Source of the DNA: an uncultured Elusimicrobiales bacterium
GTDB taxonomy: Bacteria; Elusimicrobiota; Endomicrobiia; Endomicrobiales; CAIRNS01
DNA length: 62,666 bases
Reading direction: 5' to 3'
Assembly (NCBI GenBank): GCA_964577205.1
Contig: CAZNYG010000002.1
Coordinates: 3,757 to 66,422 of the forward strand
Of this stretch, positions 1 through 13,106 are shown piece after piece (the stretch's first letter is position 1; each line of letters begins with the position of its first letter). The notes under the pieces are model-generated. The model had not been told where the DNA came from. It saw only the letters and a list, made by a program, of their open reading frames with translations, and searched no databases. Position numbers and translations under genes: made by a program.

Positions 1-3000
1 ATGGCGGCCGCGCTGAATAAAGCAGTAGAAGGCGGAAGAGGAGAATTCGATATTAAGGTTGACCTCACTCCGTCAGAGCAGGAACTGCTGGCCATGTTGA
101 AAAGAATAAGCGGAGAGTTTTATAATGGAAAGAACGATACTTTTAACATTATGAACCTGATTAACCTTCCTTTTGGATCCCGGAACGCGGACGATTCCTT
201 TTATTCCTTCATGGAATACATGAAAAAGAAGAAGAGCAAGGAAGCGATGGTTTCCTTATGCCGTAAAATCGCGGCAAACATTGAACGTGCCGGACGTGAA
301 GCGGAACCTGAGGTCAAGGCCATGGAGGAGCGGGATGCTGCAGCGAAAGCTTTCTTTCAAAGTGTGGTTTTTAATGATCCGGAACGGCTGCTTTTTAAAC
401 CATTACATACACTGAAAGAAGTCAGATCCTTTAATGCTTCAAATGAAAGGAACTTTTATGAAACCGACCCGGAATCCGATGCAGGATTGTCGGATGCGGA
501 CGTGTTCCTGGGATTCGGCAGCAATAATGTCTGGGATTACGCAATGCGCCGCAACGCCAAAACGATGATCATTGCGGAAATCTCAGAGGAATCCCTCAGG
601 ACACAGGAGTACTTCTTTAAACCGTTGATCCTTCTGGCGGCAAACCGGGCTCAGTTCCTTTCAATGCTCGCCGGGGTGCCTATTCCTGACGGTTTGACCG
701 ATCCTCAGGAAGCAATTAAATATATTGATAAGCAAATGGAGAACATGGAAAAAGCGGTAAGGCTGGAGTATGCGGAAACAATACGGAACAAGGTACGTCT
801 GAAGATGCGTCAGCATCTGGAAAAAGATGAACAGCAGAAAGCCGATGTTTATGCCGATTACGTTTTCTATTCCCTTGTCACTGCCATTGACTGTGAAATG
901 AAGGGGGACAGGAGCAAATCCCTGTATCCCTACTTTACAGCGCGCTACAGAAAGCCGAGCAGAACTGCGCTTCAGCAGAAAACCGAAGAGTATATGAGGT
1001 ATCGGCAGCAGATTAGTACGTCCCGGCAAATACTGTCAAGGGAGGATGAGCAGCAAGAAATGGATGCTCTCGTTGAGATATGTGAGAGAAATAGCGCGCA
1101 TAAGAAGTATTCCGTATTGTCCAGCGACGAGAACTTTGCCTGGCTGAAGGGCATTTTCGACAGTGAAAACGTCCGATATGTCCTGACGGATATCAATGAC
1201 ACGGCGGAAGCGTACTCTGCGGTCAGTAAATATCTGGGCGCAGGCCGTGAAGTGAATGGTTTCTTCCTGTCCAATATTATCGATACGGAATTAAGCGAGC
1301 GCCATCCCTTCAGTGACGAATACATTTCCGGCGTGTATGTACTGGAAGGAAAAGACAAGGAAACTGCTACAGATCAGCGACCCTATCTGTCCAGACTGTA
1401 CGGATATATAAGGGACATTAAATCGATATTCCCTTCCGGAGAGTTGACCGTATATACGACCCGCATGGAAAGGGAAAAACACGGTAACCAGAGGACGAGC
1501 AGGATCATGTATGCCTTGTCATCACAAAAGGATAACTATCTTAAGTATGACTGGGTCCGTCTGAAAACAATAGATGATTTTATAGAATCAATGTCGTTGC
1601 CGCGGTTGGGAGGAATTCAGTATAACGAAGAGGAACTGAATTATGCGGTAGCTGGAGCTCAATCGGGTGGAAGATCTAAAGCCGCGATACTTCCTGGGAA
1701 TGCAGGAAGGTACTATCTCAGACTCGCGAGCGGCTGGCCGAAATGGGTGGCGGTGGCGGAGGTGGCGGTGCGGGAGTTCGTGTACCCGATCGTCAACCCC
1801 TCAAGGTTCGACGCGATGCATGGCGCGCCGAATGCAGGCCGGACAAAGGCGATCAAGGGCATGTTCTACGGATTCTGGGTTCCGGTCGTAACCGGCCTGA
1901 TCTGTTCGGTGGGCATTCTCTTTGGCCTGGGAATATCGCCGGAAATGGCTGCCTCTCTTGTTGGCATGGGGGTAACGGCCGGTTCAGCCCTCAGCCTTAT
2001 ACTTCATATCGATTACGACATGAAAGCGGCGATTCCCATGATAGCGGTGCTGATAGACAACGAAGAACAGGTGAAACGGCTGCCCGTTGAGGACGATTGT
2101 GCGACGGTAGTTATCGTCGATAAAAGTCCGGAGCCCAAAGATAATACCGGGTTAAAGAATATCGGAATAAAATGCAATGGTCGGGCGACGTACGCGGAAC
2201 TGGATAAAAGCGGCAGGCTGATCATTTACACGGATCATGCAAAAGAAATCATTACTCAACTGAACGGGTACGCTGACCCGAGCAACCGGTTGTTAGAGCG
2301 GCTCAGCGGGATATTCGGCAAAAGGCTGAACGGCGTGTTTGGCGTACGCAATATGACGAAACAGGACTTGGGGGACATGGATGTGCCCGTAGTGTCAGGG
2401 GATATGGTGAACGTCAGCGGTCGGGCGATCATCAACGAACACAATGCCTCGGTGCAGGCGGGCAAGCAGGAAGTGTCGATCGTTTGCAGCGATCCGGATA
2501 AAGTGCGGGATACGGTAAGACGGCAGCGGATAAACAAGCCGATAACTTTCCTTTTCGAAGAAATCAGGGACAAAGACGCCAGCTTCTTCCGGGACCTTCA
2601 ATCGCAGGGCAGCAATGTCTATGTGAAATATGACGGGACTGATGCGGAAGAGTTACGGGCATTGAAAGATAAAGGAGTGGATGGATTGCTTTGTCTCAAT
2701 CTGACGGAAAATGAATTGGTAAAGGCGGGCATACACGCAGAGGAACTGGGCAACAGAAATGCATGGATAGCGTCAAATGATGCTGAGAATGGCAGGAACG
2801 CATTGCGGATCACCGCCGAGAACGTGAATCCGGGCACAAAAGTGAAGGATCATTCGGTAGTTTATGTTGAGAGCGCCGTACTGGTTTATCTTGTGAAGAA
2901 GAAGATGATCAGCAGCATATTCCCCCCGAATTGTATTCTTATGGTTAACGGAGGGGAGTTCCGTGAGGTATCGCGACTGACCACGAGGGATGTGACGTTG

Positions 3001-3627
3001 ATAGAGATGTTCGGGGCGAATGTGTTGGAGTATTTGCGCGGCGAACCAGAAGGCGTGGAAGGCAAGAAGGCGTATGAAAGAGACGTAGCATACAACCTTG
3101 AGATAGGCGCGATACAGGCTGATATGGCCCTGCATCAGCAGTTGACGGAAGCGAACTATGAGGAAGTTTTCGGGTACGACAGCGCGGTGAAGGATGCGAT
3201 CAGGCTGCATTTGTCCCGGATAGGAGACGATGCGGTGAGAAAGGAAGCCTTCCTTAACTCATTGACGGAACGGCTTCATGGACGCGCGGCGCTGGCGAAG
3301 TCTGCGAATGTGGCGGGCGGGGAATACGGGTTCGCCTCGAAAGAGGACGAGAAGCTGTACTGCGAACTGCGGGCTATGGTCGCCCAAGGGTTGGTTGTAT
3401 TAACGGACAAGGACGCTATTGATCTGAACGCATATAACGGCGAAAGAGCAGCTCAGGAAATTATCGTTTTGAAGAAAAAACTGGATGCAGCGCGGCCCGA
3501 TCCGAAGACTGTTGCGGGGTTACTGGTACTGCTGGAAGTGTACGGGGAGAAGAACAAACAGGCACGTTTAGAACCAAAACGCGCCGAAGACGCACGAAAC
3601 TACAAGCGCCTGCTTGAAGCGGCGTAG
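1..3627 (+). CDS. Large hypothetical protein, 5' end cut by the window edge (at least 1208 aa), with central transmembrane helices; no family recognised
   Basis: One uninterrupted ORF runs from base 1 to the TAG at 3625-3627. Hydrophobic stretches GMFYGFWVPVVTGLICSVGILFGLGI and MAASLVGMGVTAGSALSLILHI lie at about nt 1861-2010. I can assign no catalytic or binding motif by eye. Sampled lines are less G+C rich than the rest of the window. Confidence 0.7.
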   Translation: MAAALNKAVEGGRGEFDIKVDLTPSEQELLAMLKRISGEFYNGKNDTFNIMNLINLPFGSRNADDSFYSFMEYMKKKKSKEAMVSLCRKIAANIERAGREAEPEVKAMEERDAAAKAFFQSVVFNDPERLLFKPLHTLKEVRSFNASNERNFYETDPESDAGLSDADVFLGFGSNNVWDYAMRRNAKTMIIAEISEESLRTQEYFFKPLILLAANRAQFLSMLAGVPIPDGLTDPQEAIKYIDKQMENMEKAVRLEYAETIRNKVRLKMRQHLEKDEQQKADVYADYVFYSLVTAIDCEMKGDRSKSLYPYFTARYRKPSRTALQQKTEEYMRYRQQISTSRQILSREDEQQEMDALVEICERNSAHKKYSVLSSDENFAWLKGIFDSENVRYVLTDINDTAEAYSAVSKYLGAGREVNGFFLSNIIDTELSERHPFSDEYISGVYVLEGKDKETATDQRPYLSRLYGYIRDIKSIFPSGELTVYTTRMEREKHGNQRTSRIMYALSSQKDNYLKYDWVRLKTIDDFIESMSLPRLGGIQYNEEELNYAVAGAQSGGRSKAAILPGNAGRYYLRLASGWPKWVAVAEVAVREFVYPIVNPSRFDAMHGAPNAGRTKAIKGMFYGFWVPVVTGLICSVGILFGLGISPEMAASLVGMGVTAGSALSLILHIDYDMKAAIPMIAVLIDNEEQVKRLPVEDDCATVVIVDKSPEPKDNTGLKNIGIKCNGRATYAELDKSGRLIIYTDHAKEIITQLNGYADPSNRLLERLSGIFGKRLNGVFGVRNMTKQDLGDMDVPVVSGDMVNVSGRAIINEHNASVQAGKQEVSIVCSDPDKVRDTVRRQRINKPITFLFEEIRDKDASFFRDLQSQGSNVYVKYDGTDAEELRALKDKGVDGLLCLNLTENELVKAGIHAEELGNRNAWIASNDAENGRNALRITAENVNPGTKVKDHSVVYVESAVLVYLVKKKMISSIFPPNCILMVNGGEFREVSRLTTRDVTLIEMFGANVLEYLRGEPEGVEGKKAYERDVAYNLEIGAIQADMALHQQLTEANYEEVFGYDSAVKDAIRLHLSRIGDDAVRKEAFLNSLTERLHGRAALAKSANVAGGEYGFASKEDEKLYCELRAMVAQGLVVLTDKDAIDLNAYNGERAAQEIIVLKKKLDAARPDPKTVAGLLVLLEVYGEKNKQARLEPKRAEDARNYKRLLEAA

Positions 3628-3888
3628 GAAATTGACATACGAACGCTATGCGGAACCAAGATCAACGCTCGATATCGACTTTTATATCGCGCATACAAAA
3701 GGCAATTCGAAAAGAATAGTAGAGGCTTTAAAGGAATTCGCCGGGAACGACGTTGACGCCGCAGGAAAGAATAGCGGCGGTTAATACGATAAGAAGAAGA
3801 GTGTTCCAGTTGAAAGGGATGGTTGCCGACAATGTTGTTGTAAGGCACATTACGTATGTGAAGGAATGAAACTGCAAACTCCCCCCTA

Positions 3889-4076
3889 TGTCGCGTCCGA
3901 AACAAGTTCGGACTTAGTCCCGCAGAGCGGGACTTGTTTTGCTCTGTGTGGAAGTGCTCTGCAAAACGCTCCCCGAGGGAAACCTAAGGTTTCCCTTCGG
4001 CGTTCTCCCTGCAAAGATTGGGAGAACTGAACCTTTCCTAAGTTGTTAGAACCGTGTCGCGCCGCAACAAGTTCGG
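3889..4076. repeat. Pair of ~22-nt direct repeats bracketing a cluster of stem-loops
   Basis: DR1 is tgtcgcgtccgaaacaagttcgg (3889-3911) and DR2 is tgtcgcgccgcaacaagttcgg (4055-4076); they differ by one indel and one substitution. Hairpins between them lie at 3895-3913, 3917-3933, 3965-4004 and 4003-4026. Confidence 0.6.
3917..3940 (+). terminator. Candidate intrinsic terminator downstream of the large ORF
   Basis: Stem GTCCCGC / GCGGGAC with loop aga, followed by TTGTTTTG. It lies about 290 nt after the ORF stop, so the assignment is tentative. Confidence 0.45.
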
Positions 4077-4086
4077 GTTTGAGATT

Positions 4087-4833
4087 TTAACGGGATTTCT
4101 GCAGGTAGATCTCGTAGAGAAGTACGGCGGAAGCGCAGGACGCGTTGAGGGATGAGACGGGGGACGTCTGGGGTATGGAGATCAGGTAGTCGCAGCGGTC
4201 TTTTACCAGGCGGTGAAGGCCTTCGCCTTCGCTGCCGATGACAAGGGCCATGGGGAAAGCGAACTTTTCTTCCCTGACTGATTTGCCGGCCGCGTCCGCG
4301 CCGACCACCCAGATCTGTTTCTCTTTCAGGCGGGTGACCGTTTCAGCGATGTTAGTCACCCGGGCGATGGGCATGTATTCGCTGGCGCCTGCCGATGCTT
4401 TGGCCACCGATTCCGTCAATCCCACCGACCGCCACTTGCCGATTATTACTCCGTCAGCACCCAGCGTTACCGCGTTGCGGATAATGGCTCCAAGGTTATG
4501 AGGGTCTTCGATGCCATCCAGGACGACGAGCAGGGGATTCTTTTTTTCTTTTACGCTGTTCCAAAGCTCGTCCAGATCAAGATAAGTGACCGGCGCTATC
4601 TCGGCGACTACGCCCTGATTATTTTCAATGCTCAGCCGGTCCAGGCGCTCCGCCGGCACATGGTGCACGGGAATGTTGCGTTCGCGCGCGAGGCGGTCGA
4701 TCTCCCCGATGACGTCGCCGCGGGCTTTTTCAGAGATCAAAACCTTATTGACCGTCTTATTCCCCGCCTTCAACAATTCCCTGACCGGATTCCTGCCCGA
4801 TATAATATCTTCCATGGGTTCCTTTGGAGCCAT
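4087..4833 (-). CDS. rlmB: 23S rRNA (guanosine-2'-O)-methyltransferase, SpoU/TrmH family (RlmB-like)
   Basis: N-terminal SpoU substrate-binding region (GRNPVRELLKAG). SpoU motifs LDGIEDPHNLGAIIRNA, LVIGSEGEGL and IPQTSPVSSLNASCASAVLLYE. The start may instead be Met7 at 4815, which has AAGGAA upstream. Confidence 0.85.
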   Translation of the reverse strand: MAPKEPMEDIISGRNPVRELLKAGNKTVNKVLISEKARGDVIGEIDRLARERNIPVHHVPAERLDRLSIENNQGVVAEIAPVTYLDLDELWNSVKEKKNPLLVVLDGIEDPHNLGAIIRNAVTLGADGVIIGKWRSVGLTESVAKASAGASEYMPIARVTNIAETVTRLKEKQIWVVGADAAGKSVREEKFAFPMALVIGSEGEGLHRLVKDRCDYLISIPQTSPVSSLNASCASAVLLYEIYLQKSR

Positions 4834-11516: not shown

Positions 11517-13106
11517 ATGAAACCAAAAGGATACTGGTGCCTACAGCTGCACGCGCATCTGCCGTATGTCCGCCATCCCGAATACCCCGATTTTCTTGAA
11601 GAAGACTGGCTGTATGAAGGTATAACCGAGACGTACCTGCCTGTCCTGTCGATCCTCGAGCGTTTCATGGCCGAAGGCATCGATTTCCGCCTTACCATGA
11701 CGATAACGCCGTCGCTCGCGGGGATGCTGTCGGATCCGCTGCTGCAGGAACGCTATTACCGCCGGCTCAACGGCCTTATCGACCTTTCGGAAAAGGAACT
11801 GTGGCGCACGAGGAGCCTTCCGGAATTCCATCAGTCCGCGAAGATGTACGAGCGCCAGCTGAAAGAGTGCCGCCGGCTGTGGGAAAAATATCACGGCAAC
11901 ATCCTGGCCGGTTTCAAAAACCTGCAGGACGCGGGCAGGCTTGAGATCATCACCTGCTGCGCCACTCACGGTTTCCTGCCGCTGACGCTTGATAAAGCCG
12001 CGATACGCGCCCAGGTCAAGGTGGCCTGCCAGGATTATGAGCGCCATTTCGGCCGCCAGCCCCGTGGCATATGGCTCGCGGAATGCGCCTACACGCCCGG
12101 TATCGATGAGGAGCTGAAAAAGCAGGGCATCCGCTATTTCTTCCTTGAGGCGCACGGCATCCTTTACGGGACGCCGCGCCCGCGCTACGGCGTGTTCGCG
12201 CCGGTGTACTGCCCCTCGGGAGTCGCCGCTTTCGGCCGCGACATGGAAACCGCCCATCAGGTATGGAGCGCGGACACCGGGTATCCCGGCGACCCGGATT
12301 ATCGGGAATTCTACCGCGACCTCGGGTACGACCTCGATTACGATTACATCAGGCCGTACCTGCATGAAGACGGCGTGCGGCGCAATATAGGATTGAAGTA
12401 CCATCGCATCACCGGCAAAGTCGGGCTGAGCGATAAACAGCCGTACAACCCGGAGTGGGCGAAGAACAAGGCGGCGAGCCACGCCGGCAATTTCCTGTTC
12501 AACCGCGAGAAACAGATCGACTATCTTTCCGGCGTTCTCGGCCGGGAACCGATCGTTATCTCCATGTACGATGCCGAGCTGTTCGGCCACTGGTGGTTCG
12601 AAGGGCCGCAGTTCCTGGATTTCCTGTTCCGCAAGATACATCATGACCAGAACACGTTCAAGACCATAACGCCGAGCGAGTATCTTGAGAAATACCCCAA
12701 GAACCAGGTGATCACGCCCGCGGCTTCGTCATGGGGCGACAAGGGGTATTACGAGGTGTGGCTGAACGGGACCAACGACTGGATCTACCGCCATCTGCAC
12801 AAGGCGCTGGAACGCATGGTGGAACTGACCCGCGAAAATCCGTCGGCAGAAGGGCTGCGCCGCCGTTCCCTGAACCAGGCGGCGCGCGAGCTGCTGCTGG
12901 CGCAGTCGTCCGACTGGGCCTTCATCATGACTACGCGCACGATGGTCGAGTATGCCGAGAAACGCACCCGCGACCATATCGCGAACTTCACCGCTCTTTA
13001 CGAACAGATAAAGCGCGGCGCCGTCGATGAAAGGTACCTCGGTGATCTGGAATACCGTAACAATATTTTCCCGGAGATCGACTACAACGTTTTCCGGCAG
13101 GAGTGA
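11517..13106 (+). CDS. Glycoside hydrolase family 57 protein (DUF1957-type 1,4-alpha-glucan branching enzyme)
   Basis: N-terminus GYWCLQLHAHLPYVRHPE, ECAY region and EWAKNKAASHAGNF, which are typical of GH57 branching enzymes. Size is about 530 aa. Confidence 0.85.
   Translation: MKPKGYWCLQLHAHLPYVRHPEYPDFLEEDWLYEGITETYLPVLSILERFMAEGIDFRLTMTITPSLAGMLSDPLLQERYYRRLNGLIDLSEKELWRTRSLPEFHQSAKMYERQLKECRRLWEKYHGNILAGFKNLQDAGRLEIITCCATHGFLPLTLDKAAIRAQVKVACQDYERHFGRQPRGIWLAECAYTPGIDEELKKQGIRYFFLEAHGILYGTPRPRYGVFAPVYCPSGVAAFGRDMETAHQVWSADTGYPGDPDYREFYRDLGYDLDYDYIRPYLHEDGVRRNIGLKYHRITGKVGLSDKQPYNPEWAKNKAASHAGNFLFNREKQIDYLSGVLGREPIVISMYDAELFGHWWFEGPQFLDFLFRKIHHDQNTFKTITPSEYLEKYPKNQVITPAASSWGDKGYYEVWLNGTNDWIYRHLHKALERMVELTRENPSAEGLRRRSLNQAARELLLAQSSDWAFIMTTRTMVEYAEKRTRDHIANFTALYEQIKRGAVDERYLGDLEYRNNIFPEIDYNVFRQE

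Follow-up and report, generated by a model that had tools for sequence, protein, structure and literature searches.

A 15-kb mosaic gene next to rlmB probably belongs to a lineage-wide family of giant genes in the Endomicrobiales

The giant gene at the edge of the window

The first 3,627 nucleotides (nt) of a 62,666-nt window, the whole stretch of DNA that was analysed, hold the end of a very large open reading frame (ORF) in an uncultured Elusimicrobiales bacterium. The window corresponds to positions 3757-66422 of contig C2 (CAZNYG010000002.1) in the source metagenome-assembled genome (MAG), hereafter G000, which comprises 2.1 Mb in 130 scaffolds. The ORF (1..3627, plus strand, 1,208 amino acids, aa) is open at its 5' edge. 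An initial annotation, made from the letters of the window alone, had read it as part of a horizontally acquired or fast-evolving giant-protein gene, such as a surface, toxin or adhesin-like protein, inserted next to a conserved rlmB-cysS-ispFD block. We find that it forms the 3' quarter of a much longer gene, which is probably a fast-evolving mosaic member of a giant-gene family spread through the lineage.

A scaffold gap of 10 N (C2:3747-3756) lies immediately before the start of the window, and in the 3.7 kb upstream of that gap the same frame stays open in the same direction until the contig ends. Exhaustive phmmer searches led to a homologue of 3,244 aa, P0004 (MBF0594681.1, from a Candidatus Omnitrophica MAG), which is colinear with the ORF across the N gap and whose N-terminal part matches the end of a second contig, C24, on the minus strand. 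When the C24 ORF (2,609 aa from its first Met) and the C2 ORF (2,460 aa) are joined, the resulting protein aligns with P0004 in a single BLASTP high-scoring segment pair (query 2076-4368) that is gapless across both the junction at residues 2609/2610 and the N gap. Because P0004 aligns without a gap across both breaks, we take the gene to span about 15.2 kb and to encode about 5,069 aa, as the initial annotation anticipated in calling the protein longer than 1,208 aa and the gene giant. The 15.2-kb frame contains zero stops, and G+C content at third codon positions (GC3) is nearly equal in its two halves (0.566 and 0.559). This colinearity suggests that C24 and C2 are neighbours in the genome.

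G000:C24:7827..1 (minus strand), then C2:1..7383: whole giant gene, about 15.2 kb, about 5,069 aa, placed by its colinear homologue
Window 1..3627, plus strand: share of the giant gene in the window, the last 1,208 codons and the stop

The gene stands apart from its surroundings in composition. Its G+C content (GC) is 0.500 at 1-3627, against 0.579 for positions 4087-62666, and a recount of G+C letters in 60-nt lines (29, 30 and 19 at 1-180; 39 at 12001-12060) reproduced exactly the hand counts behind the earlier claim of low GC. Across the genome, 4-kb windows have a mean GC of 0.560 (standard deviation 0.025); those that start at C2:1 to C2:3001, in the giant gene, have GC of 0.466-0.491 and are among the 26 lowest of 1682. 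Tetranucleotide distance places the part of the ORF in the window at the 95th percentile and its upstream half 7th among 985 windows; codon GC3 is 0.56 in the giant gene versus a genome mean of 0.67. The gene thus deviates in GC, tetranucleotide usage and codon usage alike, the three checks that had been proposed for it. Its coding strand also carries a purine excess (window 1-4000: GC skew +0.11 to +0.22, AT skew +0.07 to +0.18), with skews well above those of most of the window.

Modules within the window

Pfam and NCBIfam scans of the ORF's window part returned no family at threshold, common housekeeping families included. To that extent the initial annotation was right that no domain is recognisable, but a DUF7790-type domain and a TIM-barrel-like domain are present, which we call module A and part of module B. 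Relatives of the window part were found by exhaustive phmmer only; word-indexed homologue searches, with the window part set within the full protein and with module A alone, returned nothing.

Module A and its motifs, all on the plus strand:

268..1497: module A, DUF7790-type domain (phmmer, profile and AlphaFold2, AF2)
505-540: motif FLGFGSNNVWDY
565-585: motif MIIAEIS
1177-1200: motif YVLTDIND
1261-1284: motif FFLSNIID
1444-1464: motif LTVYTTR

Module A covers window residues ~90-500, and its relatives are dozens of stand-alone proteins of ~400 aa (exhaustive phmmer, E down to 6e-27), most of which have signal-like N-terminal segments. Profile A1 matches the window ORF at E 5e-81. Against the Pfam family DUF7790 (PF25046), module A scores 17.9 bits (E 0.0021), below the gathering threshold of 23, while several of its phmmer homologues pass that threshold, with 40.5, 37 and 35.7 bits; we therefore regard it as a divergent relative of DUF7790 and not as a member in the Pfam sense. 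The AF2 model (predicted local distance difference test, pLDDT, 88; predicted template modelling score, pTM, 0.87) consists of a small Rossmann-like sheet into which a large helical part is inserted, and its best Foldseek match is 6ULO, an uncharacterised Leptospira interrogans protein. The resemblance to DUF7790 therefore comprises homology to stand-alone proteins that pass the threshold, together with 6ULO as the best structural match; the difference is that the domain is here fused inside a giant protein, whereas DUF7790 is otherwise a secreted protein of ~400 aa. Class-I methyltransferases gave weak Foldseek matches (E 0.2 or worse, TM-score <0.2) for a modelled piece that ends before the last strands. 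By eye, FLGFGSNN and MIIAEIS fit methyltransferase motifs, namely the Gly-rich loop after strand 1 and the acidic end of strand 2. The contexts of two stand-alone DUF7790-like genes offered no functional hint, and the module A profile found a match in 0 of 200 other Elusimicrobiota genomes.

Module B, which forms the tail of the protein, opens with conserved motifs ahead of a transmembrane (TM) hairpin; a beta subdomain, a TIM-barrel-like domain and a linker follow, and helices close the protein.

Module B, all on the plus strand:

1684..1824: pre-hairpin motifs of the tail module (conserved columns, alignment A2)
1684-1716: motif AILPGNAGRYY
1801-1824: motif SRFDAMHG
1879..2010: TM hairpin, two helices, aa 627-670 (Kyte-Doolittle scan; two long helices in AF2)
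2005-2019: H-x-x-YD motif after the hairpin (HIDYD)
about 2032-2232: beta-rich subdomain (AF2)
about 2326-2979: TIM-barrel-like alpha/beta domain (AF2, Foldseek)
2983..3027: TRDVTLIEMFGANVL, the tail module's most conserved motif (family consensus RD(I/V)T....FG.N(L)L)
3055..3624: helical C-terminal region (AF2 helices)
3601-3624: YKRLLEAA, family tail motif, a [KR]x[ILM]LxAA end

Profile A2 matches the window ORF at E 3e-195, and in the corresponding alignment of 15 homologues the LP....YL and FD..HG columns are conserved. The TM helices that the initial annotation placed at about 1861-2070, two or three in number, are two, at 1879-2010. In the AF2 model of the tail (pLDDT 73, pTM 0.69) strands and helices alternate, and the top Foldseek matches are orotidine 5'-monophosphate decarboxylase, indole-3-glycerol phosphate synthase, type I dehydroquinase, HpcH aldolase and an EAL domain, all of them weak (E about 1e-2, target TM-score 0.4-0.5). 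Profile searches of PDB sequences gave no significant match for module A, module B or the N-terminal head described below; the best for module B was a designed TIM barrel (E 0.0024). The motif TRDVTLIEMFGANVL lies in a linker that joins the barrel-like domain to the helical end and is predicted with low confidence (pLDDT <50, model residues 395-407); D398 and G406 are invariant in alignment A2. Such a linker could be a processing or interaction site. The [KR]x[ILM]LxAA end recurs in several giant ORFs of G000 and may be a sorting or recognition signal. The same ending is found at L030, L032, L045, L052, L053, L066-L068, L080, L083, L087 and L091, and it is kept even where the remaining tail has no detectable similarity.

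A lineage-wide family of giant genes

The other end of the protein connects it to many more genes. A signal-like hydrophobic segment opens the N-terminus and is followed by a head of ~600 aa whose invariant motifs include QDLH, EG and GGFH; in the family these take the form IQDLHCHPEVQ, LEG and GGFHTEG. Head profile A3 matches the C24 ORF at E 9e-234, a match that counts for the giant gene given the join of C24 to C2. Pfam scans of 11 heads at E values up to 10 found no family common to more than two members. By eye, the head may have a Tiki/TraB/EreA-like fold.

G000 itself contains 13 ORFs of more than 2,000 aa, many of which reach contig ends, and at least 14 of its giant ORFs have their N-terminal ~550 aa in common. 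The head profile matches 23 ORFs in this genome, equivalent to ~20 genes that together make up at least 106 kb (5%) of the genome, and these ~20 paralogs also have depressed GC in common. Since many of the paralogs reach contig ends, they are probably a cause of much of the assembly fragmentation in such MAGs. Examples of head-bearing genes in G000 are:

C59:4597-12528
C50:1-10188
C43:7642-17256
C30:2320-9558
C16:23084-29710

Two further giant ORFs of G000 have no match to the head profile: one of 5,072 aa with low GC (C22:12551-27766, plus strand, GC 0.522) and one of 3,571 aa with high GC (C4:10284-20996, plus strand, GC 0.603).

Beyond G000, a scan of public genomes (one per prokaryotic species) found at least 324 head loci, nearly all labelled Endomicrobiales, Endomicrobia or Elusimicrobia. 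Nearly all of these heads open giant ORFs, most of them still open 3,900 codons downstream, and the head-bearing ORFs that end within the fetched DNA mostly carry [KR]x[ILM]LxAA at the C-terminus. Among 300 other genomes of the phylum, 82 carry the head, in ORFs of up to 11,814 aa. The carriers include most non-reduced genomes of the same order, and many genomes of ~1 Mb in one genus lack the head, which suggests that the family was lost during genome reduction. Copy number was also noted in one genus of the Endomicrobiales (g11, family f10), where many genomes of 0.6-1.3 Mb have no head or 1-4 copies; relatives of ~2 Mb yielded 12-35 head candidates at first look.

For this analysis we defined an Endomicrobiales head-and-tail giant protein family operationally, by the head, a TM hairpin followed by the ~540-aa module B, and a [KR]x[ILM]LxAA end. 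The giant ORF has all three and is a member by this definition. Head and module B also occur together in one uninterrupted ORF at L032, L030, L053 and G001:C7. The literature that we searched contains no description of such a family.

TM hairpins occur three times in the joined protein (about aa 792-840, 1559-1610 and 4486-4531). The second, which is encoded on C24, and the third are 35% identical over 110 aa when the residues that follow them are included. We considered the hairpin cassette as a family-wide "punctuation" element and dropped the idea, as a hidden Markov model of it matched only itself in G000; the demonstrably related hairpins are just the two within this protein.

The middle cassette

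Between head and tail lies a cassette of different affinity, and the gene is accordingly a mosaic. Residues 2076-4368, ~2,300 aa in all, comprise an ABC1-like kinase fold and the DUF7790-type Rossmann-like domain, and their best relative is P0004, at 32-40% identity. The P0004 gene is complete, has its own signal peptide and a different C-terminus, lacks the head and the ...ILxAA tail, and has a GC of 0.445. Its setting looks like that of a mobile element, because its neighbours include a resolvase, an AbiEii/DUF6088 pair and PRiA4_ORF3:

L105 (JADFWR010000038.1) 157-872: resolvase and DUF6876 genes
L105 13041-17312: PRiA4_ORF3, DUF6088 and AbiEii genes

Composition follows the same division. 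GC shifts gradually within the giant gene and reaches its minimum in the middle cassette:

Flanking DNA: GC 0.56
Head: GC 0.524, GC3 0.629
Residues 620-2075: GC 0.509, GC3 0.567
Cassette, residues 2076-4368: GC 0.465, GC3 0.529
Module B: GC 0.529, GC3 0.628

Because the cassette has the lowest GC and its best relative lies in Omnitrophota, the trough marks the part of the gene that is foreign to the lineage. On this evidence the cassette looks to have been laterally exchanged at some time.

The kinase-like part lies outside the window, in the upstream C2 part. Residues 976-1067 of that part match Pfam ABC1 at E 5e-10 (39.3 bits against a cut-off of 22.9), over model positions 128-217 of 244 only, which is the catalytic-loop half. 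The stretch thus resembles ABC1/UbiB/COQ8 (PF03109, TIGR01982) in the catalytic-loop part, and by eye it retains HADLHPGN and a D-x-G motif. It differs in being embedded in a giant protein and in scoring far below the UbiB equivalog cut-off (45 bits vs 487); phmmer found no solved COQ8 or UbiB relative of it. Elsewhere, the ABC1-bearing stretch recurs at 22-27% identity in 11 of 300 genomes, always within other giant ORFs. Modules A and B are carried in G000 by this gene only.

Divergence at the rlmB site

The giant gene converges on a minus-strand housekeeping block, rlmB-cysS-ispF-ispD, whose make-up is as the initial annotation described it; CysS, IspF and IspD were matched by profile, as was RlmB, which serves as the synteny anchor:

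4087..4833, minus strand: rlmB (NCBIfam TIGR00186, E 3e-67)

On its other flank the gene is preceded by L21-obg-nitroreductase, which run in the same direction as the giant gene.

The closest relative of module B, P0003 (51% identity), is encoded on L111, a metagenome scaffold of 3.8 kb. There the giant-gene tail is 48% identical to that of the window, and the convergent rlmB next to it shares 92% identity with the window's rlmB. Since L111 has a giant-gene tail beside rlmB, the site is common to two close relatives, and low GC accompanies it in both (on L111, 0.458 in the giant part vs 0.527). By this comparison the giant gene is diverged, or has been replaced by recombination, far beyond its neighbour, as the term fast-evolving had implied. 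The L111 sequence upstream of the tail has no match to module A. Two stretches of the scaffold, L111:58-309 and L111:1033-1161, both match aa 572-674 (the hairpin region), lying ~1 kb apart with a 10-N gap between them, and the hairpin cassette appears from this to be duplicated in L111. G001, of the same family and a different genus, has no giant gene beside rlmB or obg, and two metagenome scans found no closer relatives.

Interpretation

We conclude, with a probability of roughly 0.7, that window positions 1-3627 are the 3' quarter of a ~15.2-kb gene for a polytopic membrane protein, and that this gene, mosaic in make-up and quick to evolve, belongs to a family of giant genes found throughout the lineage. 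Gene structure, family membership, mosaic make-up, the GC trough over the cassette and the extreme divergence relative to rlmB are observed; what follows on the cause of the low GC and on function is inferred. The architecture of this family consists of a signal or anchor and a head of ~600 aa, a variable enzyme-like middle set between TM hairpins, and a C-terminal region that ends in [KR]x[ILM]LxAA. Low GC may then reflect a hypervariable class of genes that is recombined among paralogs and probably weakly expressed, with a cassette exchanged laterally at some time in place of any recently landed island. Judged from architecture alone, the protein would be a scaffold anchored in the membrane, on which several enzyme-like modules are held at the cell envelope, with head and tail probably serving export, anchoring or assembly.

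Several observations weigh against this reading. The ends of C24 and C2 share no sequence overlap, and we infer their join from colinearity with one homologue at 32% identity, backed by the near-equal GC3 of the two halves. Neither a Pfam family nor a solved structure matches the head, which makes its role a guess. The fold matches of modules A and B are weak (Foldseek E ~1e-2, query TM-scores <0.4). With identities of 32-40%, an exchange with the sampled Omnitrophota lineage must be old and alone cannot explain the low GC3; because the sampled donor lineage is too distant in this respect, we assume either a closer unsampled source or a lasting bias of the cassette. Topology is pulled both ways: the giant protein, P0004 and the stand-alone DUF7790 relatives all have signal-like N-termini, which point to the outside of the cell, and folds of the ATP or S-adenosylmethionine type (kinase-like, Rossmann-like) together with positive charges flanking the last hairpin point to the inside.

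A bolder view is that the head-and-tail genes are an undescribed display system for interchangeable enzyme cargo, which we hold as a tentative possibility that is more doubtful than not. Head and ...ILxAA tail would then be export, anchoring or sorting machinery; mobile elements would swap cassettes among paralogs and between Elusimicrobiota and Omnitrophota; and modules would be released by processing at the invariant RD(I/V)T...FGxN linker. If this were true, ~5-10% of these small genomes would be a diversifying toolkit for the cell surface or for interactions.

The mosaic family gene that we favour has to be set against the proposal of the initial annotation that the whole gene is an island, recently acquired on a mobile element and inserted beside rlmB-cysS-ispFD. 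Low GC and deviant tetranucleotide use are what such an island would show; the best homologue of the cassette sits in another phylum on a contig with resolvase and AbiE genes, the DUF7790-like module is missing from the 200 other genomes of the phylum, and G001 has no giant gene beside rlmB or obg. Horizontal origin is plausible for the middle cassette, and only for it. The head and tail are lineage hallmarks, with ~20 low-GC paralogs of the gene in G000; GC dips in the cassette only and nears the genome value in head and tail; and a giant gene of low GC already occupies this site in the relative whose rlmB is 92% identical. Nor does the gene have the hallmarks of a genomic island (flanking tRNA or direct repeats, integrase or recombinase, a sharp compositional border): its flanks are housekeeping genes, no tRNA or integrase was seen at the examined flanks or in the giant gene, and in 7.4 kb the only tandem repeat is a single 31-nt array of 2.1 copies. 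We consider insertion of the whole gene as an island unlikely.

Slightly less likely still is a secreted or surface toxin or adhesin, either polymorphic-toxin-like, with a variable warhead at the C-terminus, or a fibre of RTX/Ig repeats. Speaking for it are the protein's giant size, its signal-like N-terminus and its place in a family of multiple copies whose N-terminal region is conserved, whose downstream content varies and which diverges fast; the stand-alone DUF7790 homologues have signal-like N-termini as well. In these respects (multiple copies, a conserved N-terminal region, swapped modules, rapid diversification) the protein recalls the polymorphic toxins (Zhang et al. 2012, PMC3482391). 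Those, however, combine a variable C-terminal toxin with an immunity gene, whereas here the C-terminal module is the conserved part of the family, variation lies in the interior, and the gene that follows is not a small immunity-like one but the convergent rlmB. The protein also has three TM hairpins, matches no toxin or peptidase domain of Pfam or NCBIfam, and shows no tandem, Ig, cadherin or RTX repeats and no internal repeats by self-BLAST (E 0.01 or better).

It is very improbable that the long ORF arose as a chimera of the assembly or is a pseudogene in decay. The MAG is fragmented, with 130 scaffolds in which paralogous heads could have led to wrong joins, and the gene extends over a scaffold gap and a contig break, but no stop interrupts 15.2 kb, a homologue is colinear across both breaks, module A gives a confident domain model (pLDDT 88), and protein homologues are found at 48-51% and 32-40% identity.

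Relation to known systems

Among described proteins, the archaeovorin-type giants of Omnitrophota offer the closest parallels (West-Roberts et al. 2023, bioRxiv 10.1101/2023.11.21.568195). Like the protein at this locus, they start with an N-terminal signal region that holds no known domain, contain many TM helices and a series of divergent enzyme-like domains, are of uncertain topology, and occur in small genomes of uncultured bacteria related to the Planctomycetes-Verrucomicrobia-Chlamydiae group. There is also a link by sequence, as the middle 2,300 aa align with a 3,244-aa Omnitrophota protein. The differences are equally clear. The protein here has 5,069 aa versus 30,000 aa or more; Pfam scans of all its parts found no SecA-DEAD, HEAT, glycosyltransferase or C39/S8 peptidase domains; the head and the ...ILxAA tail are its own, in a family of ~20 copies per genome; and neither secretion-system nor pilZ genes appeared in the examined neighbourhood. 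A scaffold role has been proposed for the giant proteins of Omnitrophota, and Elusimicrobiota have been found to be enriched in huge unannotated proteins (bioRxiv 10.1101/2023.11.21.568195).

A survey of huge proteins (>5,000 aa), in the sections on which we draw, reports that they are enriched in Elusimicrobiota and have no COG assignments (PLoS Comput Biol 2024, PMC11573180). The product of the giant gene is one such protein. The survey is statistical, and those sections describe no head, tail motif, paralog family or module exchange.

The locus gives this class of proteins a concrete anatomy, with a common head, a common tail ending and swappable enzyme-like cassettes, and it supplies a link by sequence to the giant proteins of Omnitrophota across phyla. 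A 48%-identical tail beside a 92%-identical rlmB amounts to a natural experiment in rate. Two compact predicted domains that fold well in the models, the DUF7790-like and the TIM-barrel-like one, could be produced and assayed, which makes the function of giant genes approachable piece by piece.

Upstream region and intergenic spacer

No sigma-70-like promoter was detected on C24 ahead of the gene start, and a small membrane-protein gene with a terminator upstream of the head was not evident there.

At the other end, the convergent spacer between the giant gene and rlmB lacks periodic word arrays, as had been remarked of it, and matches no Rfam family. It contains small hairpins and one terminator-like site, along with a perfect palindrome and a short direct repeat:

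3628..4086: convergent intergenic spacer, 459 nt, GC 0.479
3897-3911 and 4062-4076: 15-nt direct repeat
3916-3934, plus strand: terminator-like hairpin
3976-3996: perfect palindrome

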